Notes: generated by a model not told the origin, from the sequence alone. A stretch of 40,908 bases of DNA from Bacteroidales bacterium (GCA_016936695.1 JAFGXK010000248.1:1-40908), one strand, 5' to 3'. Shown: positions 11,535 through 32,821, counted from the first letter of the stretch. Program-made: numbers and translations.

Positions 11535-13187
11535 TTAGCTTAAAAACAGCTTGATATCGTCTTCAACAGTACCGATACCGGTAATTCCGAATTTTTCCAC
11601 AATGACTTTTGCCACATTCGGGGAGAGGAATCCGGGAAGTGTCGGGCCGAGGTGGATATTCTTGACTCCAAGATAAAGGAGAGCAAGAAGCACTATCACG
11701 GCCTTCTGCTCGTACCAGGCGATATTATATGCGATAGGCAGTTCGTTGATATCATTCAGATTGAATACCTCTTTCAGTTTCAGAGCTATCACTGCAAGAG
11801 AATAAGAATCGTTGCACTGGCCTGCATCAAGGACTCTGGGTATGCCTCCTATATCACCGAGCTGAAGCTTATTGTAGCGGTATTTTGCACATCCTGCTGT
11901 CATGATAACAGTGTCTTTGGGAAGTGCCTGTGCAAATTCAGTATAATAGCTGCGTTGTTTGAACCTTCCGTCGCATCCGGCCATAACGAAGAATTTCCTG
12001 ATGGCGCCTGATTTGACTGCTTCAACAACCTTATCGGCGAGGGCAACAACCTGATTATGGGCAAATCCACCGACTATCTCTCCTTTTTCAATTTCGACAG
12101 GTGGTTTGCAAAGCTTTGCATGCTCAATTATCTCAGAGAAATCCTTACGGCCGCCTGCAGGTCTTTCAGGGATATGCTTGAAACCGGTGAATCCCGATGA
12201 CCCCGTGGTATAGACTTTGTCGAAGTAGGAAGCACCCGCTTTCGGGGGAACTATGCAATTGGTGGTAAAAAGTATGGGGCCGTTGAAAGTTTCGAATTCC
12301 TCTTTCTGCTGCCACCATGAGCCGCCGTAGTTACCAACGAAATGTTTGTATTTTTTGAATGCCGGATAGTAATTTGCAGGTAGCATCTCACTGTGGGTGT
12401 AAACATCGACTCCTGTGCCTTCGGTCTGCACCAGAAGATCTTCCATGTCTCTCAGGTCGTGTCCGCTGATAAGAATACCCGGGTTGTTCCTTACGCCGAT
12501 GTTAACCTTTGTGATCTCAGGATTCCCGTAGGTTGTGGTATTGGCTTTGTCGAGCAGTGCCATGGCCGAGACTCCGAATTTGCCTGTTTCCATAACCAGT
12601 GCTACCAGCTGATCGGCATTCAGGCTGTCGTTTGTGGTTGCAACAAGTGCTTCCTGAATGAACTTGTGGATTGACTTATCCTCAAAACCCAGGTTATTGG
12701 CATGCTCGGTATAGGCAGCAATCCCCTTGAGGCCATATATTACCAGTTCTCTCAGCGACCTTATGTCTTCATTTTTGGTAGCAAGAACGCCGATCGATAT
12801 GTTTTTGGCCTCAAATTCTTCCACAGTATGGCCGGTCCAGGTTGCCGATTCATGAACATCGGCAGGCACGCTGCCACCTGCTTTCAAATACTTTTCCTTC
12901 AGTTCATCCCTGAGCTTCAGGCCTTCCCTGACCTTTGCCACGAACCTGTCGAAATCGAAGTTCGCGTTGGTGATGGTCATGAACAGACTGTCGACAATGA
13001 ACTTATCGGCTTCGTCGGTTTCAACGCCAAGTTTCCTCAGCCCGTTGGTGAAAAATGATATTCCCTTTGTTATGAAAATAAGAAGGTCCTGCATATTGGC
13101 AACATTGTCCTTCTTGCCGCAAACACCCACAAGGGTGCAGCCGGTCCCTTTGGCCGTCTCCTGACACTGATAACAAAACATACTCAT
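11535..13187 (-). CDS. hcp: Hybrid-cluster protein / hydroxylamine reductase
   Basis: 550 aa with the hallmark N-terminal Cys motif [23 protein letters not shown], and full-length resemblance to Hcp. The true start may be the third codon, the ATG at 13181. Confidence 0.95.
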
Positions 13188-15002: not shown

Positions 15003-15962
15003 TTATTCGAGAAGAAGGGCTGCAGCCCCGATCAGACCGGCATCTGCTCCTGCCTCTGACCTTACAATGGCTATCGGGTCGTAGATCATATCCCGTGCAA
15101 GTTCATGGAACTTTTCCAGTATCCTGTTGAAATACAAGTCACCAAGATTCATAAGCCCGCCGCCAAGGATGATCAGCGGAGGATTGAACACCTGGAAAAT
15201 ATTATATATTCCTATTCCAATGTAATCGGCACAATCCCTTACAATTTCCATACTGACAGGATCACCCGCTTCGAGCCCCTGCAGGATAAGCTGACCATCG
15301 ACCCTGCTGTAGTCAAAATCCCCGGGAAGTGGCAGACTGGTCTGCATGCCGTCTTCAATCTTTTTTCTGAACCTCGCGGGAAGGGTTAGTCCGCAGGCAC
15401 ATCCCATGAGACAGCCCCTGTTCCCGCAGGTACAAATGAAATCGCTGTCCGGATCGACAATCGTATGCCCGAACTCGCCTGCAGTTCCCGTCATTCCCCG
15501 GTATATCTTCCTGTTCAGGACTATTCCGGCCCCGATGCCTGAACTGACTGTAAGGAATATCAGATCGTCGTAGCCTTTTCCTGCTCCGAATTTAAGCTCA
15601 CAGAATGCCTGTGCGTTGGCATCATTGTCGAGCCTTACCGGAATCCTGAAGTTTCCGGCAAGAGTATCACGAAGGGGATAGCTCTTGAATCCCTTCAGGT
15701 TTGAAGTGGTTATTGTGTAACCATCCCTGTAGCGCACATGACCGGGGAAGCCCACTCCAATTCCCTCCAGATCCGTTTCATTCAACCCATTGGACGAAAT
15801 AAGCTGCTTGATAATCAGTGTTATATAATTAACAATCCCCTCCTCATCGAGTGCAACATGATCGTACACCACTGATTTACCGAGGATCCTTCCGTCGGGA
15901 TAAACCAGTCCGGCAGAAAGCTTGGTGCCTCCAAGGTCGACTCCGCAAAGTATCTTTTCCAT
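15003..15962 (-). CDS. ROK-family sugar kinase (no HTH domain)
   Basis: The ORF-track start at 15992 is a TTG overlapping the upstream gene. The ATG at 15962 gives MEKILCGVDLGGTKL, a typical ROK/glucokinase N-terminus. The ROK zinc motif is GHTIVDPDSDFICTCGNRGCLMGC. The gene starts 4 nt after the GRE stop. Confidence 0.85.
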   Translation of the reverse strand: MEKILCGVDLGGTKLSAGLVYPDGRILGKSVVYDHVALDEEGIVNYITLIIKQLISSNGLNETDLEGIGVGFPGHVRYRDGYTITTSNLKGFKSYPLRDTLAGNFRIPVRLDNDANAQAFCELKFGAGKGYDDLIFLTVSSGIGAGIVLNRKIYRGMTGTAGEFGHTIVDPDSDFICTCGNRGCLMGCACGLTLPARFRKKIEDGMQTSLPLPGDFDYSRVDGQLILQGLEAGDPVSMEIVRDCADYIGIGIYNIFQVFNPPLIILGGGLMNLGDLYFNRILEKFHELARDMIYDPIAIVRSEAGADAGLIGAAALLLE

Positions 15963-15966
15963 ATTA

Positions 15967-18381
15967 TTAAAGTGATTGTTCGGTTCGTGCAATTATATCA
16001 TCCTGGGTGTCGGGTGAAAGGGTGGTGAAAAAAGCTGAGTAACCTGCCACACGAACAACCAGGTCCCGGTGATTCTCAGGATTCTTTTTTGCGTCGAGCA
16101 GGGTTGCCCTCGATACGATATTGTACTGGACATGCCAGCCTTTGAGGGTTGCAAAGAAGGTTCTCAGAATCGAAATGAGTTTTTGTTTTTGTGTCTCATT
16201 TGAAAGCGAGGAGGGTGACAGTTTCTGATTGAGCAGAACACCACCGAGTATTTTCTCCGTAGGTAGTTTCGAGACTGACTTGAAAACTGCAGTAGGGCCG
16301 AGGCTGTCGGTGCCCGATGTGGGAGAACAGCCTTCGGCAACCGGGGTGAAGGCCTTTCTTCCGTCAGGCGTTGCCGGGACAACCGACCCGGAAGGGACAT
16401 TTGCTGAGATGCTTGATGTACCTGCATAATAGCCGCAGCCTGCCGGACCTCTGCCAAAACGGGTGGTGTGGTATTTTTCCAGCTCTTCAATGTAGCACAT
16501 ATAGGCCTCTGCGAGCAGGTTGTCGACATAATCGTCGTCGTTGCCGTACTTTGGAGCGAAATTCAGCAGCGTCTGCCTTATCCTCTCGCCATCGTGCCCT
16601 TCAAAGTCGTTCCGTATATAATTCATCAGATCCGCCTTGCTGATCCTGTTCTCCTCAAAGACAAGCTTTTTGATTGCGGCCATCGAATTGCCAAGATTTG
16701 CTATTCCGACCTGGAGGCCTGATATGAAATCGTAAACCGAGCCTCCCTCCTTGATAGTCTTTCCCCGGGTAATGCAGTCGTCGACAAAGGCGGAGCAAAG
16801 GATATCGGGAACAAGTTCCTCAAGAGCCAGATCGGCGGCTGTGTCGATTTCCACCGAAGCTTTTGTATAAAGGCTCACCTGCTGTTTCCAGGCCGACATC
16901 AGGTCGCTGAAGTTCGTGAAATCCTCAAACTGCCCTGTGCCGGGGAAGAAGGTCTTGCCCGACATGGTGTCGAGACCATTGTTCATCGCCGCCAGGAAAA
17001 CACGCATGAAGTTCAGGAAACTCATACCGGTGCACCTGTAACCCCATTTACCGGGAACGGCGATTTCAATACAGCCGATCGCAGAATAGTTGTATGCATC
17101 CTCCTTCGCCACTCCGAGACCTATAAGTGAAGGGATCACAATTTCGTCGTTATTGAAGGCAGGCATGCCGAATCCCTTTCCTATAACGTCGATACAGCGA
17201 CTAAGAAATTCTGGGTTGATATTTTTATGGAACCTGACCGACAGATTGGGCTGGGTGAGTTTCATCCGGCCAACAGAATCAAGTATCAGGAAGCTGAGCT
17301 CATTTACGGCATCGTGTCCGTCAGTCGTCTGGCCGCCTATTGTCACGTTCTGGTACAGGGGCCCACCAGCTGAGAACCGGGTGTGAGACCACGATCTTAT
17401 CTTGTTGACCGACAGAAGTTTCAGCCAGGTGTTCTCAAAAAGTTCAAGGGCAAAATCAGAGGTAATCCTGCCTGCTGCCTTATCTTCCTCGTAAAACTTC
17501 AGCAGGTACTGGTCCATCCTTCCAAGCGAAACCGAATGTCCGTTGCTTTCGATCTGCAGGACAAGCTGAACAAACCAGGTAAGCTGAAGAGCTTCATAAA
17601 AACCTGAAGGGGGATTGTTTTTTATGTTCCTGCAGAAAGCGCTGATCTTCATAAGTTCTGATTTTCTGTCAGGGCTGGTGGCATGAATGGAGAGGTCCGA
17701 TGCAAGCCGTTCGTATCTTTGAATGAAAGACTGGAAGGACCTTATTCCCGTAGTCAGGGCACTGTAGAAATTCCTCTTTCTGATATATTCTTCGTCTGCT
17801 TCCGAAAGCTTCGATTCAGCCTTTACGATCTCTTCAAGGTATCCTTTCAGTCCGATTGCAAGAATTTTCTCAAGATTAACTGCAATATGTGCATCTCCCG
17901 AGGTCAGGTTTCCTTCAGCCCTGATGATTCCCGCATCATGTATTTCCCTGTTAAGCGGCGACATAAGGGAATATCCCTTTTCAATAAGTGTTTTTCCTTC
18001 CCAGTAAAGGCAGAGCTCACGCAATTCTTTCTTCTGTTCCTCAGAGACAAAAAAGGAATCACCCGGTCGTTTGTCAAATTCATCCAGTTCCTTTATGATC
18101 CATGCAGTGACGTATTCGGGGAAAATGGGAGCGGCCCTTAAAGCTGATGACTGGTTCCCAACAATAAGTTCGCCATCGTCGATGAAGATGGTCATCTCTT
18201 TCAGGGTTCTCTCCAGCGCATATGCCCGTTTCAGGATAACCGGTGTATCTTCATGTTCTCTGTATACTTCCGTATATATCCTGGCGCGTTCGGTGCAGAT
18301 AGTCGATCCGGACGAAAGAATCTTTTCTTTCAGTCCCGCAATCCTCCGGGTAATAATGGGCGATTCGGCAATTATTGTCAT
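15967..18381 (-). CDS. Glycyl radical enzyme, PFL2/'eliminase' class, substrate unknown
   Basis: 804 aa. The C-terminal glycyl-radical loop reads LVVRVAGYSAFFTTLSPDTQDDIIARTEQSL. The thiyl loop YSAIGCIEIAVPG has Cys-x-Glu rather than the Cys-Cys of PFL. The N-terminus is typical of PFL2 proteins (ICTERARIYTEVYREHEDTPVILKRAYALE). Confidence 0.9.
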   Translation of the reverse strand: MTIIAESPIITRRIAGLKEKILSSGSTICTERARIYTEVYREHEDTPVILKRAYALERTLKEMTIFIDDGELIVGNQSSALRAAPIFPEYVTAWIIKELDEFDKRPGDSFFVSEEQKKELRELCLYWEGKTLIEKGYSLMSPLNREIHDAGIIRAEGNLTSGDAHIAVNLEKILAIGLKGYLEEIVKAESKLSEADEEYIRKRNFYSALTTGIRSFQSFIQRYERLASDLSIHATSPDRKSELMKISAFCRNIKNNPPSGFYEALQLTWFVQLVLQIESNGHSVSLGRMDQYLLKFYEEDKAAGRITSDFALELFENTWLKLLSVNKIRSWSHTRFSAGGPLYQNVTIGGQTTDGHDAVNELSFLILDSVGRMKLTQPNLSVRFHKNINPEFLSRCIDVIGKGFGMPAFNNDEIVIPSLIGLGVAKEDAYNYSAIGCIEIAVPGKWGYRCTGMSFLNFMRVFLAAMNNGLDTMSGKTFFPGTGQFEDFTNFSDLMSAWKQQVSLYTKASVEIDTAADLALEELVPDILCSAFVDDCITRGKTIKEGGSVYDFISGLQVGIANLGNSMAAIKKLVFEENRISKADLMNYIRNDFEGHDGERIRQTLLNFAPKYGNDDDYVDNLLAEAYMCYIEELEKYHTTRFGRGPAGCGYYAGTSSISANVPSGSVVPATPDGRKAFTPVAEGCSPTSGTDSLGPTAVFKSVSKLPTEKILGGVLLNQKLSPSSLSNETQKQKLISILRTFFATLKGWHVQYNIVSRATLLDAKKNPENHRDLVVRVAGYSAFFTTLSPDTQDDIIARTEQSL

Positions 18382-18382
18382 T

Positions 18383-19279
18383 TCAATTCATTATTTTGGC
18401 TGTCAGACCTTTGTGTTCAGCATATTCAACACAGGGTGCAATTTCGGATTTCTCAACATTCCGTGCATTACCAAAAACATAGTCTTTCCCGAGAAACAGG
18501 TATTTTTCCTTTGCAAGCGAATGGAAGGGGATGAAATGGATCTCACTTGAATTATTAAGGTCAGATGCAAAATCAATAATGGAACGGATCTCGGGTTCGG
18601 AGAAATTGAAATCAGGAACGACGGGCACCCTGATCACGAATTGCGCTCCGCTGGCATCAAGCTTTCTGAAGTTTTCCATTACCAGTCCTGCATTGCCTCC
18701 GGTAAAGAAGGAAAACTTTTCAGGATCGGTGTGTTTCAGGTCGGCAAGAAAGACATCCACCAGTCCAAGGCATTTTTCGATGTTTTCCCATGGCACATGA
18801 AGAGATGTCTCGGCCGATATATGGATATCCTTTTTTTTCAGTTCTGCAAGCAATTCAATCAGTTCGCCGTCCTGGGCAAAAGGTTCGCCGCCTGAAAGGG
18901 TGACTCCGCCACCGCTCATTTCGTAGAACGGAATGTCCTTTTCAATTTCGCTCATTATACTGTTGATGCTCATGTTCTCACCTGTAATAGTCAGGGCTCT
19001 CGACGGACAAATATCCCTTAGCGCATCAAAGCATGTGATGTTTTCCCTGTCAATCACCAGACCGTCTCCCTCCGGCCTTATGCTGCCGCCGCTGTTCTTT
19101 ATGCAATCTCCGAACTTATGGCAAAGCCTGCTGTCAAACATTATTGAAGGGAAGGGATCAATGCTTTCGGGATTGTTGCACCACAAACACCTGAGCGGGC
19201 ACCCCTTGAAGAAAATGTTGGTCCGGACCCCAAGGCCATCGTGCAGGCAGAATCGTTGTATGTTAAAAACAGTCAGCAA
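18383..19279 (-). CDS. Glycyl-radical enzyme activating protein (radical SAM)
   Basis: 298 aa. The N-terminus is VFNIQRFCLHDGLGVRTNIFFKGCPLRCLWCNNPE (CxxxCxxC). A SAM-binding GGVTLSGGEP motif is present. The ferredoxin-like insert has only four Cys. The start appears to be the TTG at 19279, because there is no in-frame ATG upstream of the conserved N-terminus. Its stop is 1 nt from the GRE start. Confidence 0.9.
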   Translation of the reverse strand: MLTVFNIQRFCLHDGLGVRTNIFFKGCPLRCLWCNNPESIDPFPSIMFDSRLCHKFGDCIKNSGGSIRPEGDGLVIDRENITCFDALRDICPSRALTITGENMSINSIMSEIEKDIPFYEMSGGGVTLSGGEPFAQDGELIELLAELKKKDIHISAETSLHVPWENIEKCLGLVDVFLADLKHTDPEKFSFFTGGNAGLVMENFRKLDASGAQFVIRVPVVPDFNFSEPEIRSIIDFASDLNNSSEIHFIPFHSLAKEKYLFLGKDYVFGNARNVEKSEIAPCVEYAEHKGLTAKIMN

Positions 19280-19442
19280 AATGGGAATGATTAACCTGTC
19301 AGTATTTAAAGGGTAAAAGATACTTAAAAATTCAAATAATAAATTATCATCCGGGTGTTTCAGACAATGGTTAAAGATAAATATTTAGATAAAATAAAAG
19401 ATTTAGTTTATTTTGCCGTTATATAGACACGGATTTTTTGGC

Positions 19443-20579
19443 ATGGATATTACAAATACGATTCACGATAAAATCAGGCGGGAGCACCTTTTGTTTGTTT
19501 TCAGGGGGGAGATAACGGAGAAGAATTCCCTTCCTTTGCTTACCCTGCTTGAAAATGAAATGAAGGAGGACTCTTACGACCTTTCGGGGCGAAAGAGACT
19601 CTTCATGTATGTTCTCGAAAGTCTTCAGAATATTGTAAAGCATGGCGATCAAAAAGGCCATGCCGTTATGCCGCTTGTTTCTTATTCAAAAACTGATGAC
19701 GGTTACACGATAACAACAGGGAACGTGATCACGGAAGAACAATCCGGCTTACTCAGGGACAAGCTTGAAAAGGTCAATTCACTTGATGCCATTGATATCA
19801 AGGCTCTTTACAGGCAGATACTTGAAACAACCGGATTCAGTGAAAAAGGGGGAGCAGGTCTCGGTCTGCTGGAGATGGCCCTGAAAACAGGAAACAGGCT
19901 GGATTTTGATTTCATTCCGATAGGAGGAGGATTGTCTTATTTCGTTCTGAGCAAGACAGTCGATTCTTCGGGACTTGGCAGGACCAACGGCAGCGCCCGG
20001 GAAAAATTTGACGGCAGTCCGGTGCTGGAGTTTGAACGACTTCTGGCCCGGAACAATGTTCACATGACCTGGTCGGGTCATATAACATCCGGGATTGGGG
20101 ATGATGTACTGTCAATCACCGAGGCCAGACTTTCGGATGAGGATGTGGATGCACGAATCAGGAGAAAGGTATTTAATATTATGGTGGAGATCCTTGAAAA
20201 TGTTTCAAGATACAACCCGGGCAAAGAAGCTGAGGAGAAATATGGATTACCTCTTGCAATGGTACGATTCGAGAGTGGCAGGTTTGTCCTGACTACAGGA
20301 AATCTGATATCAGGATTGATGATCGGAGAACTTAAGCAAAAATTAGACAACATAAACAGTTTCAGCCAGGGCGAACTCAAGACCTTGTTTTTCGCATCAT
20401 TATCGGCCCAGTCGATAGAAACCGACAGTACCGGAAATATGGGACTGATTTCCATGGCAAGGAAATCGGGGGGCAAGCTGGAATACCAGTTTAAAAAGGT
20501 AAATGAGGAGTACTCTTATTTCATGCTCACGGTAAGAGTTGAGAATACAAGCGGATCACCTGAAGCTCTTCAGATATAG
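19443..20579 (+). CDS. Tandem-duplicated SiaB-like (DUF6272 / GHKL anti-sigma-kinase-like) protein
   Basis: The ORF-track start at 19413 is a TTG, and the ATG at 19443 (MDITNTIHDK) is preferred. The two halves align to each other. Examples are LLFVFRGEIT/VHMTWSGHIT, RKRLFMYVLESLQNIVKHG/RRKVFNIMVEILENVSRYN, YTITTGNVI/FVLTTGNLI and GGAGLGLLEMALKTGNRLDFDF/STGNMGLISMARKSGGKLEYQF. The family assignment is from memory of SiaB-type sequences. Confidence 0.55.
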   Translation: MDITNTIHDKIRREHLLFVFRGEITEKNSLPLLTLLENEMKEDSYDLSGRKRLFMYVLESLQNIVKHGDQKGHAVMPLVSYSKTDDGYTITTGNVITEEQSGLLRDKLEKVNSLDAIDIKALYRQILETTGFSEKGGAGLGLLEMALKTGNRLDFDFIPIGGGLSYFVLSKTVDSSGLGRTNGSAREKFDGSPVLEFERLLARNNVHMTWSGHITSGIGDDVLSITEARLSDEDVDARIRRKVFNIMVEILENVSRYNPGKEAEEKYGLPLAMVRFESGRFVLTTGNLISGLMIGELKQKLDNINSFSQGELKTLFFASLSAQSIETDSTGNMGLISMARKSGGKLEYQFKKVNEEYSYFMLTVRVENTSGSPEALQI

Positions 20580-23724: not shown

Positions 23725-23839
23725 TTCTTTTTTTTTTCAGGCAGAGCCGTAAGCTTATTTTATACCCTTGCCTTTGCTTGGTTCAATAAAATGAAGTATC
23801 TTAAAAGACTTTTTAGTGATAGATTAAAAAGATTTGTTT

Positions 23840-25792
23840 ATGAGTTACATTAAGTTCGAAAAGGGTCAGATTGTAAACCTCGAGTTCTCACTTTCGAGGG
23901 AGGTCATCAGAACCAACCGTGCTGGTTCATATTCCTCAACCACAATTGTCGGGTGTAATACCAGGAAATACCACGGCCTTCTTGTTTGCCCGATTGATGC
24001 ATTCGGCGGGGAGAGGCATGTGCTGCTCTCATCGATGGATGCGACAGTTGTTAATCACGACAAGAGTTTTAATACTGGGATCAGGAAATACAGGGGTGAT
24101 TACTACAGCCCAAAGGGGCACAAATATATAGAGGAGCTCGAGATGGAAGGAATTCCCTCGAGAATTTACAGGGTTGGGGGTGTCAGGCTTAAGCACGAAA
24201 GACTTCTTACTCATTATGAGGAACAATACATGGCAAGGTTCACTATCCTTGAGGCATCGGAACCCATGAAGCTTCAAATACGTCCATTCCTGGCTTTCAG
24301 GAATATACATGAGCTTACCCATGCAAATCTTGCAGCCAACACCAAAGTTGAGTTCATACCCAACGGAATAAAAATGAAGCTTTATGAAGGATTCCCCTTC
24401 CTTCACATGCAATTCTCAACAAATGCCGAATTTGTTCACGTACCAGACTGGTATCTGGGTGTGGAGTATATCGAGGAACAGAAAAGAGGCTATGACTATT
24501 CCGAGGATCTTTTTGCCCCGGGGTTCTTTGAAGTAGAGGCCAGTGAGGGGGATGTAATTGTTTTCTCGGCTTCAACAAAGGAAGAGAAGCCATCTGGTTT
24601 CAAAACCAAGTTCACCAGGACTGTCAGCGGGAAGATCCCGAGAAGCAATTTCTCAAACTGTTTGAGAAATGCTGCCCAGCAGTTTATCGAAAGTCGTCAT
24701 GGCAAAACACTTGTGATTGCAGGGTATCCCTGGTTCGGATCATGGGGAAGGGATACATTTATCGCACTTCCCGGTCTGGCAACTGCCAGGCCTGCAAAAA
24801 AGCTTCATCTCTACCGTGAAGTACTCGATACCCAGGTTGGGAGCATGAAGGACGGATTGTTCCCCAATATGGGTAATGCCGACAATCCTGCTTTCAATTC
24901 GGTTGATGCTCCGCTATGGTTCTTCTGGGCTGTGCAGCAGTACCTGGAGAACGGGGGAACAGATGCATGGGAACGTTACGGCGGACCCATGATATCAGTA
25001 CTCAATGCATACCGGTCAGGAACTGGGTTCAATATAGGAATGAGGGAAAACGGACTGATTTATGCAGATGCACCGGGAAAATCGCTTACATGGATGGATG
25101 CCGTAGTCCATGGTGTTCCTATTACGCCAAGGAACGGATATGCGGTGGAAATCAACGCATTGTGGTACAATGCTGTATGTTTTACCCTCGATCTGGCAAG
25201 GCAGAACAAGGAACGGAAGTTCGTAAAGGAATATGAAGAACTTCCAGAACTGATAAACCTTTCCTTCCATGAACTGTTCTGTGATCATGCAAAGGGATAC
25301 CTGGCCGACTATGTCAACGATAAGGAGGGCAAGAACTACTTCGTGAGGCCTAATATGCTAATCGCTGTGTCTCTTCCATATTCGATGCTGTCAAAGGATC
25401 AGATGAAAAGAGTGCTCGACATAACCGACAAGGAGCTGCTTACACCCCGGGGACTGCGTACCCTGTCGCCGGGCAATCCTCTTTACAAGGGAACATATTT
25501 CGGGAGCCAGGAGGAGAGAGACAAAGCCTACCATAACGGGACAGTCTGGCCATGGCTGATCGGGCCATTCTGCGAGGGATGGCTGAAAGTGTACGGCCTG
25601 CAGGGTGTGCAAAGGGTTAAAAAGCTTATATGGGGATTCGAGGAGGTGATGAGTGAACATGGTGTCAGCACTGTCTCCGAGATCCACGACGGCGATCCTC
25701 CTCATGCTCCGAACGGTGCTATTTCGCAGGCATGGAGCGTCGGGGAAATCCTGAGGATTATGGATCTGCTTGAAAACAAATATTCTTTATAA
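23840..25792 (+). CDS. Glycogen debranching enzyme family protein (amylo-alpha-1,6-glucosidase, GDE_N/GDE_C type)
   Basis: The start is moved from the TTG at 23834 to the ATG at 23840. Motifs are NTRKYHGLLV, VIAGYPWFGSWGRDTFIALPGL, WMDAVV, YHNGTVWPWLIGPF and AISQAWSVGE. Confidence 0.8.
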   Translation: MSYIKFEKGQIVNLEFSLSREVIRTNRAGSYSSTTIVGCNTRKYHGLLVCPIDAFGGERHVLLSSMDATVVNHDKSFNTGIRKYRGDYYSPKGHKYIEELEMEGIPSRIYRVGGVRLKHERLLTHYEEQYMARFTILEASEPMKLQIRPFLAFRNIHELTHANLAANTKVEFIPNGIKMKLYEGFPFLHMQFSTNAEFVHVPDWYLGVEYIEEQKRGYDYSEDLFAPGFFEVEASEGDVIVFSASTKEEKPSGFKTKFTRTVSGKIPRSNFSNCLRNAAQQFIESRHGKTLVIAGYPWFGSWGRDTFIALPGLATARPAKKLHLYREVLDTQVGSMKDGLFPNMGNADNPAFNSVDAPLWFFWAVQQYLENGGTDAWERYGGPMISVLNAYRSGTGFNIGMRENGLIYADAPGKSLTWMDAVVHGVPITPRNGYAVEINALWYNAVCFTLDLARQNKERKFVKEYEELPELINLSFHELFCDHAKGYLADYVNDKEGKNYFVRPNMLIAVSLPYSMLSKDQMKRVLDITDKELLTPRGLRTLSPGNPLYKGTYFGSQEERDKAYHNGTVWPWLIGPFCEGWLKVYGLQGVQRVKKLIWGFEEVMSEHGVSTVSEIHDGDPPHAPNGAISQAWSVGEILRIMDLLENKYSL

Positions 25793-25808
25793 TAAAAACA
25801 GGTGTGAT

Positions 25809-27107
25809 ATGCGCGTATTAATGTTCGGTTGGGAGTTTCCGCCACATATTTCGGGCGGGCTGGGTACAGCCAGTTTTGGCCTGACAAAAGGTATGTCGAC
25901 ACTGGAGGACCTGGAGGTGATCTTTGTTGTCCCGAAGTCCTGGGGAGATGAGGATCAGACAAAGGTAAGGCTTATCGGGGCCAACAAGGTGCCTGTTGCA
26001 TTCAAGCAGATTCACTACAAGGGATTCAGGCGCCCCCTTGAACAGATTGAAATATCCTCAAGGATTGTCCCGTATACCGATCCTGAAGAATTCTGGGAAA
26101 GAATAAGCTCAGAGTCCTCAGGATACAAACTCATTGTGCAGACCAACAAGGAAGGCACAATCGATTTTTCGGGAAAATACGGCGGTGAACTGATGGATGA
26201 AATATATAAGTACTCAGTTGTCGCTTCTGTAATAGCCGAAGAAAACGAATTTGACATAATCCATGCCCACGACTGGCTTGCTTATCCTGCGGGAATAGCA
26301 GCTATGGAGGTCTCGGGCAAACCACTGGTAATACATGTCCATGCAACCGATTTTGACCGCAGCGGGGGAAATGTCAACCCCGATGTCTACCGGATTGAAA
26401 AACTCGGAATGGACGCTGCATCCAAGATTGTTACGGTAAGCAATCTAACAAGGGATATTGTTATTAATAAATACAACATTGATCCTGAGAAGGTTGAAAC
26501 TGTATACAATGCTGTGGAGCCGGTCAAGATGGCGCAGGACCCTTCTGTGAAAAAAGGATTTGATGACAAAGTGGTCACTTTCCTTGGGAGGATAACCCTC
26601 CAGAAGGGACCGGAATATTTCATTGAGGCTGCATACAAAGTTCTTAAAGTTATGCCCGACGTAAGATTTGTGATGGCAGGATCGGGAGATATGATGGAAA
26701 GGATGATGCGAAGAGCTGCCGCCCTGAATATTACCGACCGTTTCCACTTTACCGGATTCCTGAAAGGGAAGGATGTGTTTACCATGCTTAAAATGAGTGA
26801 TGTTTACATTATGCCTTCAGTCTCTGAACCCTTCGGAATATCGCCCCTCGAAGCAATGCAGTCGAACGTTCCTGTGATAATCAGCAAACAGTCGGGAGTG
26901 TCGGAAATTCTTACCCACGCAGTTAAAACCGATTTCTGGGATATTGACGCAATGGCTGATGCAATCTACGGGATACTTAATTATCCTGCCCTTTCCAAAA
27001 TGTTCATTAAGAACGGAAAGGAAGAGGTGGTAAGACTGAAATGGGATAATTCGGCAAGGCATGTCAGGGATATTTATTACAGAGTGATTTGGCAAAACAA
27101 GAACTAG
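25809..27107 (+). CDS. Glycosyltransferase family 4 (GT-B, retaining; glycogen-synthase-like)
   Basis: The ATG at 25809 gives MRVLMFGWEFPPHISGGLG. The C-terminal nucleotide-sugar motif is MPSVSEPFGISPLEAMQSNVPVIISKQSG (E-x7-E). Confidence 0.85.
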   Translation: MRVLMFGWEFPPHISGGLGTASFGLTKGMSTLEDLEVIFVVPKSWGDEDQTKVRLIGANKVPVAFKQIHYKGFRRPLEQIEISSRIVPYTDPEEFWERISSESSGYKLIVQTNKEGTIDFSGKYGGELMDEIYKYSVVASVIAEENEFDIIHAHDWLAYPAGIAAMEVSGKPLVIHVHATDFDRSGGNVNPDVYRIEKLGMDAASKIVTVSNLTRDIVINKYNIDPEKVETVYNAVEPVKMAQDPSVKKGFDDKVVTFLGRITLQKGPEYFIEAAYKVLKVMPDVRFVMAGSGDMMERMMRRAAALNITDRFHFTGFLKGKDVFTMLKMSDVYIMPSVSEPFGISPLEAMQSNVPVIISKQSGVSEILTHAVKTDFWDIDAMADAIYGILNYPALSKMFIKNGKEEVVRLKWDNSARHVRDIYYRVIWQNKN

Positions 27108-27109
27108 AT

Positions 27110-28540
27110 ATGAGTTTAACAGGCAAAAAAGCTATATGCTTTTATTTTCAGGTGCATCAGCCTTTCAGGCTAAAAAGATACAGGTTCTTTGACCTGGGGC
27201 ATGATCATTATTATTATGACGATTTCACAAATGAATCGATCATGAGAAAGGTGGCGGATAACTGTTATCTGCCTGCCAACGAGATCATCCTCGACCAGAT
27301 TCTGAAGAACAAGGGGAAATTCAAGGTGACTTACTCGCTGACCGGTCTTGTGATAAAGCAGTTTCAGCTCTATGCCCCGGAAGTCCTCGAATCATTCAGG
27401 AAACTTGCTGAGACGGGAATGGTGGAATTCCTCGCCGAGACCGAATCGCACTCGCTGGTGTCGATAAAAACCCGAAGCGAATTTGAACACCAGGTCAATG
27501 ACCACAGGGAAATGATCAGGGAATTCCTTGGCTATGAGACCACATCTTTCAGGAATACGGAACTTATCTATTCCGATCAGATAGGGTCGTGGGTTGCCGA
27601 CATGGGATTCAAGTCGATGCTTACAGAAGGCGCTAAGCACGTCCTGGGATGGAAAAGTCCCAACTTCCTGTATTGTAATTCGATTAATCCAAGGCTTAAA
27701 GTCCTGCTGAGGAATTTCGTCCTCAGCGATGATATAGCCTTCAGGTTCTCAAACAAGGGATGGGCTGAGTGGCCCCTGACAACCGATAAATATACCGCGT
27801 GGCTTTCCAAAATCGCTTCCAAGAGTGAACTTGTGAATGTTTTCCTTGATTATGAAACCTTCGGGGAACATAATCATAAGGATACAGGTATATTTGACTT
27901 CCTCGAACACCTTCCCTCAGCGATCCTGAAGAAGACACCATACAAATTCATGACTCCTACGGAGGTTGCATCTTACCTGCAGCCGGTTTCAGCAATAAGC
28001 ATTCCATCGCCTATCTCATGGGCCGACGAGGAACGTGACATCACCGCCTGGCACGGTAATGAACTGCAGGTTGCAGCCCTGGAAAAACTTTACAACCTTA
28101 CGGATAAAGTCAACCGCTGCGAGGATATCCAGATTAAAAAAGACTGGAAATACCTCCAGGCAAGTGACCATTTCTACTATATGGCCACAAAGTTCTTCTC
28201 CGACGGTGCCGTGCATGCTTACTTCAACCCTTATGATACACCTTACGACGCTTTTATGAACTATATGAACGTCCTGAGCGATTTCGAGATCAGGGTTAAC
28301 CGTTTTGTCCCTGACAGGGATACCCATACCGAGATTTCAAAACTTAATGATCTTATTAAGGAAAAGGAATCCATTATCGAACAGCAGACGGCACAGATCG
28401 ATGAACTGAGGAAAAAGTCCGGAACCAAAAACAAAACAGCTCCGGCTACCGCTCTTTTCTCAGGAGAAAGGACAAAATCGCTGACCGGCAGGAAGACAAC
28501 TTCAAGGAAAACTTCAGGGAAAAGAAAATCTTCCAGGTAA
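27110..28540 (+). CDS. Glycoside hydrolase family 57 protein with a C-terminal coiled-coil and basic tail
   Basis: The ATG at 27110 lies 2 nt after the GT4 stop. GH57 regions are recognisable: FQVHQPFR, GMVEFLAE, FRNTELIYS (candidate nucleophile Glu) and VFLDYETFGEH (candidate acid/base Asp). The tail reads IEQQTAQIDELRKKSGTKNK...GRKTTSRKTSGKRKSSR. Confidence 0.75.
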   Translation: MSLTGKKAICFYFQVHQPFRLKRYRFFDLGHDHYYYDDFTNESIMRKVADNCYLPANEIILDQILKNKGKFKVTYSLTGLVIKQFQLYAPEVLESFRKLAETGMVEFLAETESHSLVSIKTRSEFEHQVNDHREMIREFLGYETTSFRNTELIYSDQIGSWVADMGFKSMLTEGAKHVLGWKSPNFLYCNSINPRLKVLLRNFVLSDDIAFRFSNKGWAEWPLTTDKYTAWLSKIASKSELVNVFLDYETFGEHNHKDTGIFDFLEHLPSAILKKTPYKFMTPTEVASYLQPVSAISIPSPISWADEERDITAWHGNELQVAALEKLYNLTDKVNRCEDIQIKKDWKYLQASDHFYYMATKFFSDGAVHAYFNPYDTPYDAFMNYMNVLSDFEIRVNRFVPDRDTHTEISKLNDLIKEKESIIEQQTAQIDELRKKSGTKNKTAPATALFSGERTKSLTGRKTTSRKTSGKRKSSR

Positions 28541-28597: not shown

Positions 28598-31500
28598 ATG
28601 AATGTTGAACTAATTTTTGAGACCAGTTGGGAAGTATGCAACAAGGTCGGAGGTATTCATACGGTAATTTCAACAAAAGCATTGAATATAAAAAATGAGC
28701 TTGGAGACAATTATATTACCATTGGCCCCGATGTATGGAGAGAAGAAGTCACAAATCCTGAATTTATACCCGATGATTCATTATTCCCTGAATGGATGGC
28801 AGTAGCGGCCACTGAGGGACTCAGAGTAAAGATCGGACGCTGGAACATTGCCGGGAAACCAATAGTTTTTCTGCTTGATTTCACCCCTTACTTCGGACAA
28901 CAGAATGAGATATTTGCAAAGTTCTGGGAAACATATAAACTCGACAGCATAACCGGTCAGTGGGATTATGTTGAACCTGCACTGTTCGGATATGCTGCGG
29001 GAAAAGTCATTGAAAGCTTTACATCATACTATCACGAGCGTCATAATATCATTGCTCAGTTTCACGAATGGATGACCGGGACCGGGATTCTGTATCTCGA
29101 AAAATACGCTCCATGGATTGCCACGGCATTCACAACCCATGCAACTGTACTGGGACGATCAATTGCCGGAAACAGCAGACCTCTTTACGGGAAACTTAAA
29201 GATTACAACCCCGTTCAGATATCCAGGGAATTCAACGTGGTAGCAAAACAATCGCTTGAAAAGATTTCAGCTGCCGAGGCAGATGTCTTTACTACCGTGA
29301 GCGAAATCACTGCCAAAGAGTGTGCTTATTTCCTGGGCAAGAATGTAGACCTGGTTACCCCTAACGGTTTTGAAGATTCCTTTGTCCCTCCGCCGGAAGA
29401 ATTCGGGAAGAAACAGCAGGCGGCCAGGGATAAACTGAGGAGTGTCGCGGAGGCTGTTCTCGGCTATAAGCTGAAAGATGACTGCACGTTCATTGCAAAC
29501 AGCGGAAGATATGAATTCCGTAACAAGGGCGTCGATATTCTAATCGATTCACTTGGGGAACTGAACAAAGAGGAAAGCCTCGCACGTGAATGCGTGGCTT
29601 TTATCCTGATGCCTGCCTATCACAAAGGGCCCCGCCAGGATCTGATCGACATTCTCTATCATAATGGCCCGGTTAACGGCATTGACCGCTACCTTACACA
29701 TTGTTTGCATTATCCTTCAAGCGATCCGGTGCTTCACCGCATCGCTCAAAACGGACTAACCAATGACCGGAATGAAAAGGTTAAGATAGTTTTTGTGCCA
29801 TCATATCTCAACGGGAACGACGGAATCTTTAACCTCGCCTATTATGATCTTCTCATAGGATTCGACCTGTCGGTATTCCCTTCATACTACGAACCCTGGG
29901 GTTATACCCCGCTCGAAAGCCTTATGTTCTCCATTCCTACTGTAACCACCTCGCTGTCGGGGTTCGGCCTATGGGTTAAAGAATACTTCAGGGACCACGG
30001 TAACGGAATTGCAGTCATCGAAAGGACTGATGACAATGAAAAGAGTGTGGTCAGCGAGATGAGGGATTTTATAAAAAAATATGTAGGCCTTTCGGAAGCA
30101 GAGATCAGGGAAGCAAGGTTCAAGGCTCATGAGATCTCAAGGATTGCAATGTGGGACAACCTGGTAAAACACTATTTTGAGGCTTATGAAATAGCTCTGG
30201 AACAGAGCAGTATGAGGAGAGATGAACCAAGAGAGTTTACTCAGTTTGTTGAGGCCCCCGGCAGGGAAATAAGGAAACCTCATCAGATACCGGTCTGGAA
30301 GGATATTTATGTGCAAAGCGACGTTCCCGACAAGCTTTCATCGCTCAAGGAACTCGCCAACAACCTTTGGTGGTCGTGGAACACCGAAGCTGAATCACTT
30401 TTCAGGAGAATGGATCCTTCCCTCTGGGAAAAGGTGAAGCATAACCCGAAACTACTTCTCGAGAAGATCGACTATAAACGACTCCTGGTTCTTGAGGATG
30501 ACGAGGATTTTATCGCAGATCTTGAGAATGTAATGAAGGCTTTCAGGGATTATATCAACAGACCGCAGGATAATGAAAAACCATCAGTCGCCTACTTCAG
30601 CATGGAGTTTGGAATACATCCCTGCCTGAAAATCTACTCAGGAGGTCTTGGTATTCTTGCAGGCGATTACCTCAAGGAAGCAAGCGATTCCAATGTCCAC
30701 ATAACGGGTATAGGACTTCTCTACAGGTTCGGTTATTTCAAGCAAAAGCTTGGACTTAAGGGAGAACAGCTTACCATTTATGAAGCTGAGGAATTTTCGC
30801 GGCTGCCTATTAATCCGGTGAAGGATGCTGAGGGAAAACAGCGGACGGTAAACATCGTCTGGCCGGGAAGAACTGTGAAGATCCGGATATGGGAAGCAAA
30901 AATAGGTAAAGTGCCGCTCCTGCTTCTTGATACCGATTTTGAGGATAACCTGCCTGAAGACCGCTCAATAACACATTACCTGTATGGAGGGGATCATGAG
31001 AACAGGCTTAAACAGGAACTTATCCTTGGCATAGGAGGCATAAGAGCCCTTAACGAATTGGGGATCAAACCCGATCTTTATCATAGCAACGAAGGCCATT
31101 CGGCATTCATCAGCCTTGAAAGGATACGCTTACTTATTCAGGATTACCATCTTACTTTCGATCAGGCCATCGAGGTAATCAGACCGTCCACCCTGTTCAC
31201 AACACATACACCGGTTCCTGCAGGACATGACGCCTTCGAGGAAGATCTTCTGAGAAAATATATTTCCCATTATCATACCAGACTTAACATTGACTGGGAT
31301 GAGCTAATGGATCTTGGCCGCTGCCCGGGGGATGCCGACAGGAAATTCAACATGAGTTTCCTGGCTACCCATATGTCGCAGGAGCTGAATGGCGTGAGCA
31401 AGCTTCACGGAGAGGTTACTCAGGGGCTCTTTAATAAACTCTGGCCCGGTTACCTGAAAGAGGAACTTTTTATCGGATATGTCACAAACGGTGTTCATTA

Positions 31501-32821
31501 TCCTACATGGATTGCCCCGGAGTGGCAGGAGGTTTATAAAAAGCTTCTTGGGACCGCCAATTTCGACCAGACCGACAGAAGCCTGTGGGAAAAGCTGTAT
31601 TCACTTGACGATAAGAAGGTGTACGAAGTCAAGACTGACCTGAAAAGGAAACTCTTCGTGAATATCCGCAAGAGACTGCAGTCAGATATGCTCGACAAGC
31701 ATGTCAGCCCGCGCACACTGCTTAATATAAGCACTCATTTGAACGATAAGGCCCTTACGATCGGATTTGCGCGAAGGTTTGCAACCTATAAAAGGGCTTC
31801 ATTACTTTTCAGGGATCTCGACCGGCTTTCGCGGATCGTCAATGATCCTGACAGACCGGTGCAATTCATTTATGCCGGGAAAGCTCATCCACATGATGGC
31901 GGAGGCCAGGATCTCATTAAACGAATAGTTGAGATATCACAGATGCCGCAGTTTACCGGCAAGGTGATCTTCCTTGAGAACTACGACATAGAACTGGCAA
32001 AGCAGCTGGTCAGGGGGGTTGACATCTGGCTTAATACCCCGACAAGACCCCTTGAAGCATCAGGTACCAGCGGAGAAAAAGCCGTAATGAATGGTACAAT
32101 ACATTTCAGCGTCCTCGACGGATGGTGGGTAGAAGGTTACCGTGCCTATGCCGGATGGGCCCTTCCCAAAAAGAAATCTTTCACTAACCAGGATCTTCAG
32201 GACGACGTCGATGCTGAAACAATCTATAATATGCTGGAATATGAAATCATACCTGCATATTATTCTTCTGATGACAACGGTGTGCCGGTTGAATGGATTA
32301 GCCATATCAAGAATACCATGGTGAAGATCGCCCCGGAATTTACCATGCGCAGGATGCTGGATGACTACATCGAAAGGTATTACATGAAACTGTGGCCGAG
32401 AAGTAAATATTTCAATGCCAACTACTTTGAAAAAGCCAAGGAAATGGCTTACTGGAAAGACACCATGAGACAGGAGTGGGATAATATTGAAGTCCTGAAT
32501 TACAGCTTCGAACAGCCTCATGAAAATGTATATCATTCAGGCCATGATTACCGGGCGGAAATTGCTCTGGATATCAAGAAAATCCCAAAGGAAAACGTTG
32601 GCGTCGAATTCGTTTTCACCCATCTTAACAAGAATGGAGAATATGAATTTGTTGACAGCCAGGAGTTCAAACTGGTAAGCAATAAGAACGGGAAATGTCT
32701 TTACAGGGCAAACCTGGTGCCGGAAAAAGCGGGCACCTTCTTTTATGGAATAAGGATATATCCCAGGCATATAGATCTTCCGCATAAACAGGATTTCTAC
32801 CTGCTCAGGTGGATTGACTAG
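28598..32821 (+). CDS. Fusion protein: N-terminal GT3 (eukaryote-type) glycogen synthase plus C-terminal GT35 alpha-glucan phosphorylase
   Basis: A single 1407-aa ORF. The N-terminal part (about 28598-30200) reads FETSWEVCNKVGGIHTVISTKA ... FHEWMTG ... FPSYYEPWGYTPLES. The linker is about 30200-30290. The C-terminal part starts with LANNLWWSWN (DUF3417-type) and continues YFSMEFG ... SGGLGILAGD ... HSNEGHSAF ... EASGTSGEKAVMNG, with the putative PLP Lys codon at 32078-32080. Confidence 0.88.
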   Translation: MNVELIFETSWEVCNKVGGIHTVISTKALNIKNELGDNYITIGPDVWREEVTNPEFIPDDSLFPEWMAVAATEGLRVKIGRWNIAGKPIVFLLDFTPYFGQQNEIFAKFWETYKLDSITGQWDYVEPALFGYAAGKVIESFTSYYHERHNIIAQFHEWMTGTGILYLEKYAPWIATAFTTHATVLGRSIAGNSRPLYGKLKDYNPVQISREFNVVAKQSLEKISAAEADVFTTVSEITAKECAYFLGKNVDLVTPNGFEDSFVPPPEEFGKKQQAARDKLRSVAEAVLGYKLKDDCTFIANSGRYEFRNKGVDILIDSLGELNKEESLARECVAFILMPAYHKGPRQDLIDILYHNGPVNGIDRYLTHCLHYPSSDPVLHRIAQNGLTNDRNEKVKIVFVPSYLNGNDGIFNLAYYDLLIGFDLSVFPSYYEPWGYTPLESLMFSIPTVTTSLSGFGLWVKEYFRDHGNGIAVIERTDDNEKSVVSEMRDFIKKYVGLSEAEIREARFKAHEISRIAMWDNLVKHYFEAYEIALEQSSMRRDEPREFTQFVEAPGREIRKPHQIPVWKDIYVQSDVPDKLSSLKELANNLWWSWNTEAESLFRRMDPSLWEKVKHNPKLLLEKIDYKRLLVLEDDEDFIADLENVMKAFRDYINRPQDNEKPSVAYFSMEFGIHPCLKIYSGGLGILAGDYLKEASDSNVHITGIGLLYRFGYFKQKLGLKGEQLTIYEAEEFSRLPINPVKDAEGKQRTVNIVWPGRTVKIRIWEAKIGKVPLLLLDTDFEDNLPEDRSITHYLYGGDHENRLKQELILGIGGIRALNELGIKPDLYHSNEGHSAFISLERIRLLIQDYHLTFDQAIEVIRPSTLFTTHTPVPAGHDAFEEDLLRKYISHYHTRLNIDWDELMDLGRCPGDADRKFNMSFLATHMSQELNGVSKLHGEVTQGLFNKLWPGYLKEELFIGYVTNGVHYPTWIAPEWQEVYKKLLGTANFDQTDRSLWEKLYSLDDKKVYEVKTDLKRKLFVNIRKRLQSDMLDKHVSPRTLLNISTHLNDKALTIGFARRFATYKRASLLFRDLDRLSRIVNDPDRPVQFIYAGKAHPHDGGGQDLIKRIVEISQMPQFTGKVIFLENYDIELAKQLVRGVDIWLNTPTRPLEASGTSGEKAVMNGTIHFSVLDGWWVEGYRAYAGWALPKKKSFTNQDLQDDVDAETIYNMLEYEIIPAYYSSDDNGVPVEWISHIKNTMVKIAPEFTMRRMLDDYIERYYMKLWPRSKYFNANYFEKAKEMAYWKDTMRQEWDNIEVLNYSFEQPHENVYHSGHDYRAEIALDIKKIPKENVGVEFVFTHLNKNGEYEFVDSQEFKLVSNKNGKCLYRANLVPEKAGTFFYGIRIYPRHIDLPHKQDFYLLRWID

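Follow-up and report, generated by a model that had tools for sequence, protein, structure and literature searches.

A ROK kinase-linked glycyl radical enzyme operon of the YbiW type in a Bacteroidales bacterium: a candidate phosphotransferase-independent route for 1,5-anhydroglucitol

Introduction

What reaction would a glycyl radical enzyme (GRE) catalyse when its operon encodes, besides its activating enzyme, nothing more than a sugar kinase of the ROK family? The question is raised by three minus-strand genes of a Bacteroidales bacterium (GCA_016936695.1, JAFGXK010000248.1:1-40908; the window hereafter is this whole 40,908-nucleotide stretch, with positions counted from its first letter). 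An original prediction, made from the sequence alone, described them as an orphan "eliminase" operon acting on a phosphorylated 1,5-anhydrohexitol, with the ROK kinase in the role that a phosphotransferase system (PTS) has elsewhere. It took GREs of the Escherichia coli PflD/YbiW type to be dehydratases of 1,5-anhydrohexitol 6-phosphates that feed an aldolase.

Ma et al. (JACS 2024, 146:26187) reportedly assigned YbiW and PflD as ring-opening C-O lyases. In the literature that we consulted, YbiW is the ring-opening C-O lyase of 1,5-anhydroglucitol-6-phosphate (AG6P) and PflD does the same with 1,5-anhydromannitol-6-phosphate; the product, 1-deoxyfructose-6-phosphate, is converted by FsaA/FsaB to glyceraldehyde-3-phosphate and hydroxyacetone (PMC13450708, PMC12441222). 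In the anhydroglycolysis of E. coli the substrate is phosphorylated by the PTS (PMC12441222). A 2026 review classes both enzymes as GRE isomerases and gives Cys441 and Glu443 as the catalytic pair of YbiW (PMC13450708). The "eliminase/dehydratase" chemistry of the original prediction has to be replaced by isomerisation (PMC13450708).

Here we compare the three gene products with characterised systems and with related loci. The comparison favours, with a probability of roughly 0.7, a PTS-independent anhydroglycolysis module, in which the kinase would make AG6P, the GRE would convert it to 1-deoxyfructose-6-phosphate and an aldolase encoded elsewhere would complete the pathway.

Results

The GRE groups with YbiW

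The GRE contains PFL-like (PF02901, E = 2.7e-201) and Gly_radical (PF01228, E = 2.8e-32) domains and matches TIGR01774, the NCBIfam model of the PFL2/glycerol dehydratase subfamily, with 992 bits. When its nearest solved relatives were ranked by phmmer against PDB sequences, the top matches, near full length, were the YbiW-like protein 6xs4 (982 bits) and E. coli YbiW itself (8id7/8yjn, 977 bits). Other GREs followed at lower scores, namely glycerol dehydratase (GDH, 620 bits), propanediol dehydratase (563 bits) and PflD (516 bits), and more distantly CutC (about 445 bits), HypD (405 bits) and IslA (347 bits), so that the tight clustering with HypD or CutC that the original prediction had named as speaking against it is not seen. 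Full-length identity is 56-57% to YbiW, 38% to PflD and 40% to GDH; the sequences of YbiW, PflD and their activases YbiY and PflC were those of the annotated E. coli K-12 genome. By these comparisons the GRE is an added member of the known YbiW family, and because that family has a characterised orthologue, the label "orphan" no longer applies. GRE-family proteins in the searched collection are mostly unnamed, and the names that are given include "formate C-acetyltransferase", "pyruvate formate-lyase" and a generic PFL/glycerol dehydratase-family enzyme.

The kinship extends to generic positions of the active site. The Cys loop of the window GRE is in the same register as that of YbiW and the Gly loop is the same (Table 1). 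We aligned the window GRE with 71 relatives, YbiW, PflD and GDH, and read nine pocket columns, which are generic GRE positions mapped from GDH (H164, H281, S282, Y339, C433, E435, D447, S448 and Y640). The window GRE has H, H, S, Y, C, E, C, T and S at these columns and is identical to YbiW at all of them, with five differences from PflD and three from GDH. The latter three, in which D447, S448 and Y640 of GDH are replaced by C450, T451 and S656 just as in YbiW, show that the pocket is not of the GDH type. PflD has H, S, S, G, L, H and Y at the H164, H281, S282, Y339, D447, S448 and Y640 columns, which are invariant or nearly so across the clade of the window GRE. Within seven residues on either side of six pocket anchors, identity is 83% with YbiW, 36% with PflD and 41% with GDH.

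The window GRE also has segments that are specific to YbiW, among them GKWGYRCTGMSF and YYAGTSSISANVP, and 84 columns are conserved at 95% or more in the clade while differing from both PflD and GDH; YbiW agrees with the clade at 74 of them. Identity to YbiW is 54-61% across the clade, and a neighbour-joining tree places YbiW as sister to the 72 sequences, with PflD and GDH outside. Together these comparisons support the same reaction as that of YbiW and probably the same substrate.

PflD, which works with PflC, the FrwCBD PTS, FsaB and GldA, shares with the window system the GRE isomerase class, the CxE loop, a short activase insert and the logic of a 6-phospho-anhydrohexitol substrate. It differs in its sequence, in the five pocket positions (H281 to S, Y339 to G, and the C/T and S positions) and in the PTS-rich surroundings of the E. 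coli pflD locus.

The kinase belongs to a Met-type ROK subfamily

The Pfam ROK domain (E = 1.1e-62) covers residues 6-318/319 and fills the whole kinase, which therefore lacks a helix-turn-helix (HTH) domain, including the N-terminal winged helix of ROK repressors, in agreement with the original prediction of an enzyme and not a repressor. In addition to the ATP-binding and zinc motifs (Table 1), it has GEFGH (the ExGH motif) and the catalytic Asp in DNDAN. The fold family, the absence of an HTH, and the DxGxT, DNDAN, ExGH and His/Cys3 zinc sites are common to the ROK glucokinases of Streptomyces griseus (GlkA, 3VGK), Enterococcus faecalis (2QM1) and Thermus (3VOV). The best solved relatives are 3vgk and 2qm1, at about 172 bits, and the top NCBIfam match is TIGR00744 (glucokinase), at 206.8 bits, which is below the cut-off of 260.35.

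The difference from these glucokinases lies immediately after the zinc motif. The canonical ROK signature is GHx9-11CxCGx2G(C/H)xE (PMC2742894), with CxCGxxGCx(E/D) as an alternative form (PMC5458393), and its terminal acidic residue is a conserved sugar-coordinating residue (PMC2742894, PMC5458393). In the window kinase this residue is Met186, which aligns with the Glu of 3vgk, 2qm1 and 3vov and with E588 of the human N-acetylmannosamine kinase GNE. The replacement is characteristic of the GRE-linked ROK proteins, 61 of 62 of which have Met at this position and one Ile (locus L061), in the pattern GC[LWIVF]-M or -I. In a full HMMER search of 1.84 billion representative proteins with the window kinase, of which the best 150 matches were examined, the signature Met occurs in 16 of the 27 top representatives, compared with 4 of the 123 others, nearly all of which have Glu.

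The change from Glu to Met removes a carboxylate that can form hydrogen bonds, and we read it as a possible adjustment of the kinase to 1-deoxy sugars, of which 1,5-anhydroglucitol is one. With its TIGR00744 score below the cut-off and its altered sugar-binding residue, the protein is predicted to be a specialised kinase and not the plain glucokinase that would have spoken against the original prediction.

The nearest relatives of the kinase also include five tandem ROK-ROK fusions of about 650 amino acids (P0126, P0131, P0134, P0135 and P0143), which have the canonical Glu in both zinc motifs.

Kinase, GRE and activase are linked across phyla

A scan of one genome per species gave 569 relatives, and the analysis went on with the best 80 loci (60-93% identity); 77 of these, from at least six phyla, had a usable GRE, and their ORFs were called and clustered. 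The activase is the gene immediately upstream of the GRE, on the same strand, in 59 of the 77 loci, and a ROK homologue lies immediately downstream on the same strand in 58 and within the locus in 66. Orthologues without linkage to kinases, which the original prediction had listed as evidence against itself, are thus not the rule. The GRE-ROK linkage is found in 42 of the 46 assessable loci of Bacteroidota and in 12 of the 19 of Spirochaetota (a ROK gene is somewhere in the locus in 15 of the 19), as well as in Bacillota, Victivallales and Planctomycetota, with flanking genes that are otherwise unrelated. Identity to the window GRE rises and falls with identity to the window ROK protein (r = 0.93) and to the window activase (r = 0.97), from which it follows that the three genes have moved together. 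Two natural fusions from the HMMER search with the kinase, P0137 (663 amino acids) and P0145 (674 amino acids), join an N-terminal Met-type ROK domain to a C-terminal GRE activase, as assigned with Pfam; read as Rosetta-stone proteins, they link the kinase to the GRE system.

The commonest fourth gene of the related loci encodes a DeoR-family regulator (HTH_DeoR and DeoRC domains), which is found in 42 loci (e.g., L017, 13385-14128), in 35 of them directly after the kinase. The Bacteroidales subclade of the window (L001-L016, L021, L069, L077 and L080) has no DeoR gene and instead has YifB on the opposite strand, so that the predicted operon of three genes is correct for the window and does not describe most relatives. 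In a Victivallales locus (L050, 8379-9023, OZ245791.1) a TAL_FSA aldolase gene stands directly upstream of activase, GRE, ROK and DeoR, on the same strand, a placement that by analogy matches the E. coli logic.

Other genes accompany the operon in part of the loci. Gfo/Idh/MocA oxidoreductases are encoded in 15 loci, in 12 of them no more than four genes from the GRE (e.g., L007, 7638-8831; L013, L014, L028), and the solved relatives of these proteins include levoglucosan dehydrogenase, the C-glycoside 3-oxidase DgpA and 1,5-anhydrofructose reductase. GMC oxidoreductases are embedded in several operons of Spirochaetota (L061, L062, L070, L072 and L073). Both kinds of oxidoreductase may be a hint of upstream redox steps on anhydro-sugars. 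ABC sugar-transporter genes are present in a subset of the related loci.

The activase has a reduced auxiliary-cluster motif

The activase scores 304 bits with TIGR02494 (GRE activase family, cut-off 174) and shares 44% identity with YbiY of E. coli and 32% with PflC. Most GRE activases have a ferredoxin-like domain with eight Cys (PMC13450708), corresponding to two auxiliary [4Fe-4S] clusters. The insert of the window activase has exactly four Cys and is thus not of the eight-Cys type; three of them (C53, C59 and C91) are conserved in the family at 98%, and the fourth, C83, occurs in about 6% of the homologues, confined to the nearest relatives. The corresponding region has six Cys in E. coli YbiY (including Cx3Cx2C...C) and four in PflC (CxxCxxC...C). 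Because these two are also below eight, a low number of insert Cys is a family trait and not a peculiarity of this gene; the original count of four was accurate.

What separates the window activase from YbiY is the loss of the middle Cys of the motif (CxxFGDC). Within the ROK-linked clade, CxxFG(D/E)C is present in 44 of 63 activases, including that of the window, with Phe in place of the middle Cys of the ancestral CxxCxxC, which 16 of the 63 keep. This clade offers a natural experiment in which an auxiliary-cluster motif has been deprived of one ligand. As a speculation, the conserved Asp/Glu just before the last Cys of CxxFG(D/E)C could be a substitute ligand.

Organisation of the operon

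The three genes form one operon. Their tight packing, with gaps of 1 and 4 nt as originally described, was confirmed by the ORF listing and by reading the junctions. Between activase and GRE (...AAT TGA a ATG ACA...) the TGA ends at 18383 and is separated by a single nucleotide (18382) from the GRE ATG at 18381; between GRE and ROK (...CTT TAA taat ATG GAA...) the TAA ends at 15967 and a 4-nt gap precedes the ROK ATG at 15962. The mechanical ORF of the kinase reaches a TTG at 15992, and homologue alignments begin at the ATG at 15962. The activase ORF lacks an in-frame ATG close to its 5' end, and its sole plausible start is the TTG at 19279, from which the protein begins MLTVFNIQRF..., in alignment with MIFNIQRY of YbiY. 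All the motifs that had been quoted for the three proteins are present on translation. The operon is flanked by YifB/ComM, which is convergent and separated by 4 nt from the ROK stop, and by a divergent SiaB-family kinase gene.

As in E. coli ybiW-ybiY, the activase gene adjoins that of the GRE. The E. coli locus differs in having PTS phosphorylation, fsaA next to ybiY and the ybiV phosphatase gene, whereas the window has the order activase-GRE-kinase, without aldolase or phosphatase, and most relatives add DeoR. The hosts also differ, that of the window being an uncultured environmental Bacteroidales and not an enterobacterium. We found no homologue of aldolase, transporter, DeoR, Gfo or GMC proteins adjoining the operon or anywhere in the window, which agrees with the original observation that no aldolase or transporter gene is adjacent. 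Searches of the window for GldA and YbiV phosphatase homologues gave none, and FsaA and FsaB gave no match by tblastn. There is no PTS gene in the window, where the ROK kinase holds the partner position, and no microcompartment, aldehyde dehydrogenase or 1,3-propanediol dehydrogenase genes were found near the operon.

No Rfam element reached the gathering thresholds in the window or around the operon, and the one match was at chance level (E = 0.5). A scan for sigma-70 promoters and terminators, which does not cover Bacteroidota promoters, gave sites no commoner than in shuffled sequence and weak consensus matches only.

Proposed pathway and alternatives

The pathway that we propose would start with a 1,5-anhydrohexitol imported by a transporter encoded outside the window. 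The ROK kinase would phosphorylate it at O6 with ATP, the substrate being most likely 1,5-anhydro-D-glucitol (1-deoxyglucose). Gly780 of the GRE would receive its radical from the activase, which would work with S-adenosylmethionine (SAM) and its radical-SAM [4Fe-4S] cluster. The thiyl radical of Cys437 would then take a hydrogen from C2 of the sugar phosphate while Glu439 deprotonates the C2 hydroxyl, the ring C1-O5 bond would break, and return of the hydrogen would give 1-deoxyfructose-6-phosphate. An FSA/TalC-type aldolase encoded elsewhere in the genome would convert this product to glyceraldehyde-3-phosphate and hydroxyacetone. Gene order, motifs, family membership, linkage, co-variation and fusion were all observed directly. 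The kinship with YbiW, the linkage in 58 of 77 loci and the non-glucokinase signature lend support to the original proposal of a phosphorylated 1,5-anhydrohexitol with the ROK kinase in the role of the PTS.

Several points weigh against this pathway. The enzyme activities, the identity of the sugar and the aldolase step are all predicted from sequence, with the chemical steps taken over from YbiW. The pocket comparison rests on generic GDH-mapped positions and not on the AG6P-contact residues of 8ID7, and because the compared positions are not the true ligand-contact list, it falls short of proof of the substrate. Identity of 56-57% to YbiW is high, yet it is no proof of an identical substrate, and YbiW is an outgroup to the ROK-linked clade in the neighbour-joining tree and not nested inside it. 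For the kinase, what the sources confirm of the canonical ROK Glu is that it is a conserved residue of sugar coordination. As for the surroundings, the window's subclade lost or never had the DeoR regulator, the FsaA/FsaB tblastn search placed an aldolase in the flank of just one of the 80 related loci (L050) and none in the window, and the Bacteroidota loci show no transporter conserved next to the operon.

An alternative is that the same kind of radical ring-opening or C-O cleavage acts on another phosphorylated sugar, chosen by the altered pocket of the kinase. This sugar could be 1,5-anhydromannitol or a different anhydro- or deoxy-hexitol, or else a compound that the Gfo/GMC oxidoreductases of some related operons produce. 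The position of YbiW as sister to the ROK-linked clade, with 54-61% identity across it, the distinctive replacement of Glu by Met in the kinase subfamily, and the Gfo/Idh/MocA and GMC oxidoreductases of related operons, which have no counterpart at the E. coli ybiW locus, agree with such a substrate. We nevertheless consider it unlikely, since the window GRE equals YbiW at all nine mapped pocket positions, five of which are different in the mannitol-specific PflD, and at 83% of the surrounding residues, and a gluco-configured substrate fits because the nearest solved relatives of the kinase are glucokinases. Taken together, the Met-type kinase, the three-Cys activase site and the Gfo/GMC oxidoreductases of some operons raise the further idea that the ROK-linked clade as a whole has a radical route of its own, in which the phosphorylated anhydro- or deoxy-sugar is not 1,5-anhydroglucitol. 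We regard it as doubtful; if true, both the substrate of the GRE and the specificity of the kinase would be new, and they would occur widely among environmental Bacteroidales and Spirochaetota.

The glucokinase kinship, with TIGR00744 as the top NCBIfam match and glycogen genes about 4.5 kb away, could also indicate a housekeeping glucokinase that merely adjoins a GRE whose substrate is phosphorylated by something else. This is very unlikely in view of the TIGR00744 score (207, below the cut-off of 260), the adjacency retained, with differing flanks, by 58 of the 77 loci from several phyla, the same-strand gap of 4 nt, the co-variation of GRE and ROK identities (r = 0.93), the ROK-activase fusion proteins and the restriction of the Met signature to the nearest relatives. 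That the GRE is instead a classical 1,2-eliminase, which would dehydrate a small or phosphorylated diol in the manner of glycerol or propanediol dehydratase, is hardly credible. It does share with the B12-independent GDH of Clostridium butyricum (1R8W/1R9D) the TIGR01774 assignment, the Cys-x-Glu loop (C433/E435) and the equivalents of H164, H281/S282 and Y339, and GDH is its next-best solved relative after YbiW (620 bits). Identity to GDH is, however, 40% compared with 56-57% to YbiW, the window GRE has, like YbiW, C/T and S at the GDH positions D447/S448 and Y640, and the YbiW-type insertions (WGYRCTG and RFGRGPAGC) are absent from GDH. The chemistry differs as well, GDH catalysing an elimination and YbiW-type enzymes being isomerases (PMC13450708), and the microcompartment and dehydrogenase genes of such pathways are missing nearby.

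With the PTS-independent conversion of 1,5-anhydroglucitol as the preferred explanation, the operon is a variant of a known pathway and departs from it in four ways: a kinase replaces the PTS, this kinase belongs to the Met-type subfamily, the auxiliary-cluster motif of the activase is degenerate and no aldolase is linked. In the open-text literature, which does not include the primary 2024 YbiW/PflD paper, we found no description of a ROK-linked GRE form, the route described being that of the PTS (PMC12441222). If the explanation is correct, anhydroglycolysis reaches from PTS-bearing gut enterobacteria to PTS-poor environmental anaerobes, among them Bacteroidales, Cytophagales, Spirochaetota, Victivallales and Planctomycetota. 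The explanation also predicts a bacterial kinase dedicated to 1,5-anhydroglucitol, which so far as our searches show would be the first of its kind. It would be recognisable by the signature GC-x-Met in place of GC-x-Glu and would provide an annotation rule for a large and mostly unnamed GRE family and its linked ROK gene. Nothing established is overturned, and a specialist in GREs would see in the operon a natural next step from what is already known.

Other features of the window

Table 1 Features of the operon and of other parts of the window
Feature	Position	Strand	Description and basis
GRE-activating enzyme (radical SAM, YbiY-like)	18383-19279	-	298 aa, TTG start; TIGR02494, Pfam Radical_SAM and Fer4_12
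GRE, YbiW family (predicted AG6P ring-opening C-O lyase)	15967-18381	-	804 aa; PFL-like and Gly_radical, TIGR01774
ROK-family sugar kinase without HTH (predicted anhydro-sugar 6-kinase)	15003-15962	-	319 aa; Pfam ROK
AT-rich divergent intergenic region, 133 bp	19280-19412		presumed operon promoter region; sequence read
Thiyl (Cys) loop GCIE, GRE residues 436-439	17065-17076	-	C437/E439 align with YbiW C441/E443
Glycyl radical loop RVAGYSAFF, GRE residues 777-785 (G780)	16027-16053	-	identical to YbiW loop
Radical-SAM cluster motif CPLRCLWC (C27, C31, C34)	19178-19201	-	translation; columns 92-98% Cys in 65 aligned activases
Reduced ferredoxin-like insert CHKFGDC ... C-x7-CP (C53, C59, C83, C91)	19007-19123	-	translation, alignment
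ATP-binding DxGxT motif DLGGTK, kinase residues 9-14	15921-15938	-	translation
ROK zinc motif GH-x10-CTCGNRGC-L-M (H166, C177, C179, C184; Met186)	15405-15470	-	translation, alignment
Glycogen cluster, GDE	23834-25792
Glycogen cluster, GT4/GT5	25770-27107
Glycogen cluster, GH57	27089-28540
Glycogen cluster, GH13 branching enzyme	32818-34845
Glycogen synthase-phosphorylase fusion	28598-32821	+	1407-aa ORF
Tandem SiaB-family kinase / DUF6272 gene	19413-20579	+	divergent from the operon
Hybrid-cluster protein	11535-13187	-	two genes from the GRE operon
Adjacent multi-pass membrane proteins	348-1838, 1850-2782	+

The window is 90-93% identical in nucleotide sequence, over 13-19 kb, to two Bacteroidales metagenome-assembled genomes, UBA6117 and MFD04716.bin.1.69. 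The synteny of the SiaB-like kinase, an LpxH-like protein, thioredoxin-like lipoproteins, the glycogen genes and YifB is limited to close relatives. A functional link of the operon to the glycogen cluster, GH97 and the hybrid-cluster protein (Hcp) was considered and rejected, because their synteny, in about 11-17 of the 77 loci, is confined to the closest Bacteroidales relatives.

The Hcp gene encodes a protein of the hydroxylamine/NO reductase type. A preprint is said to deal, by its title, with nitric oxide inhibition of GREs. The position of the Hcp gene near the GRE operon is probably a coincidence, as it is syntenic only in the nearest relatives. The divergent gene on the other side of the intergenic region encodes two tandem SiaB-family kinase / DUF6272 domains and is likewise syntenic only in close relatives.

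Within the glycogen cluster, a single ORF fuses an N-terminal eukaryote-type glycogen synthase domain (PF05693), DUF3417 and an alpha-glucan phosphorylase (PF00343). Near the start of the window, the two adjacent multi-pass membrane proteins have repeated GldL_N-like segments with a recurring KIQHWPGAG motif.

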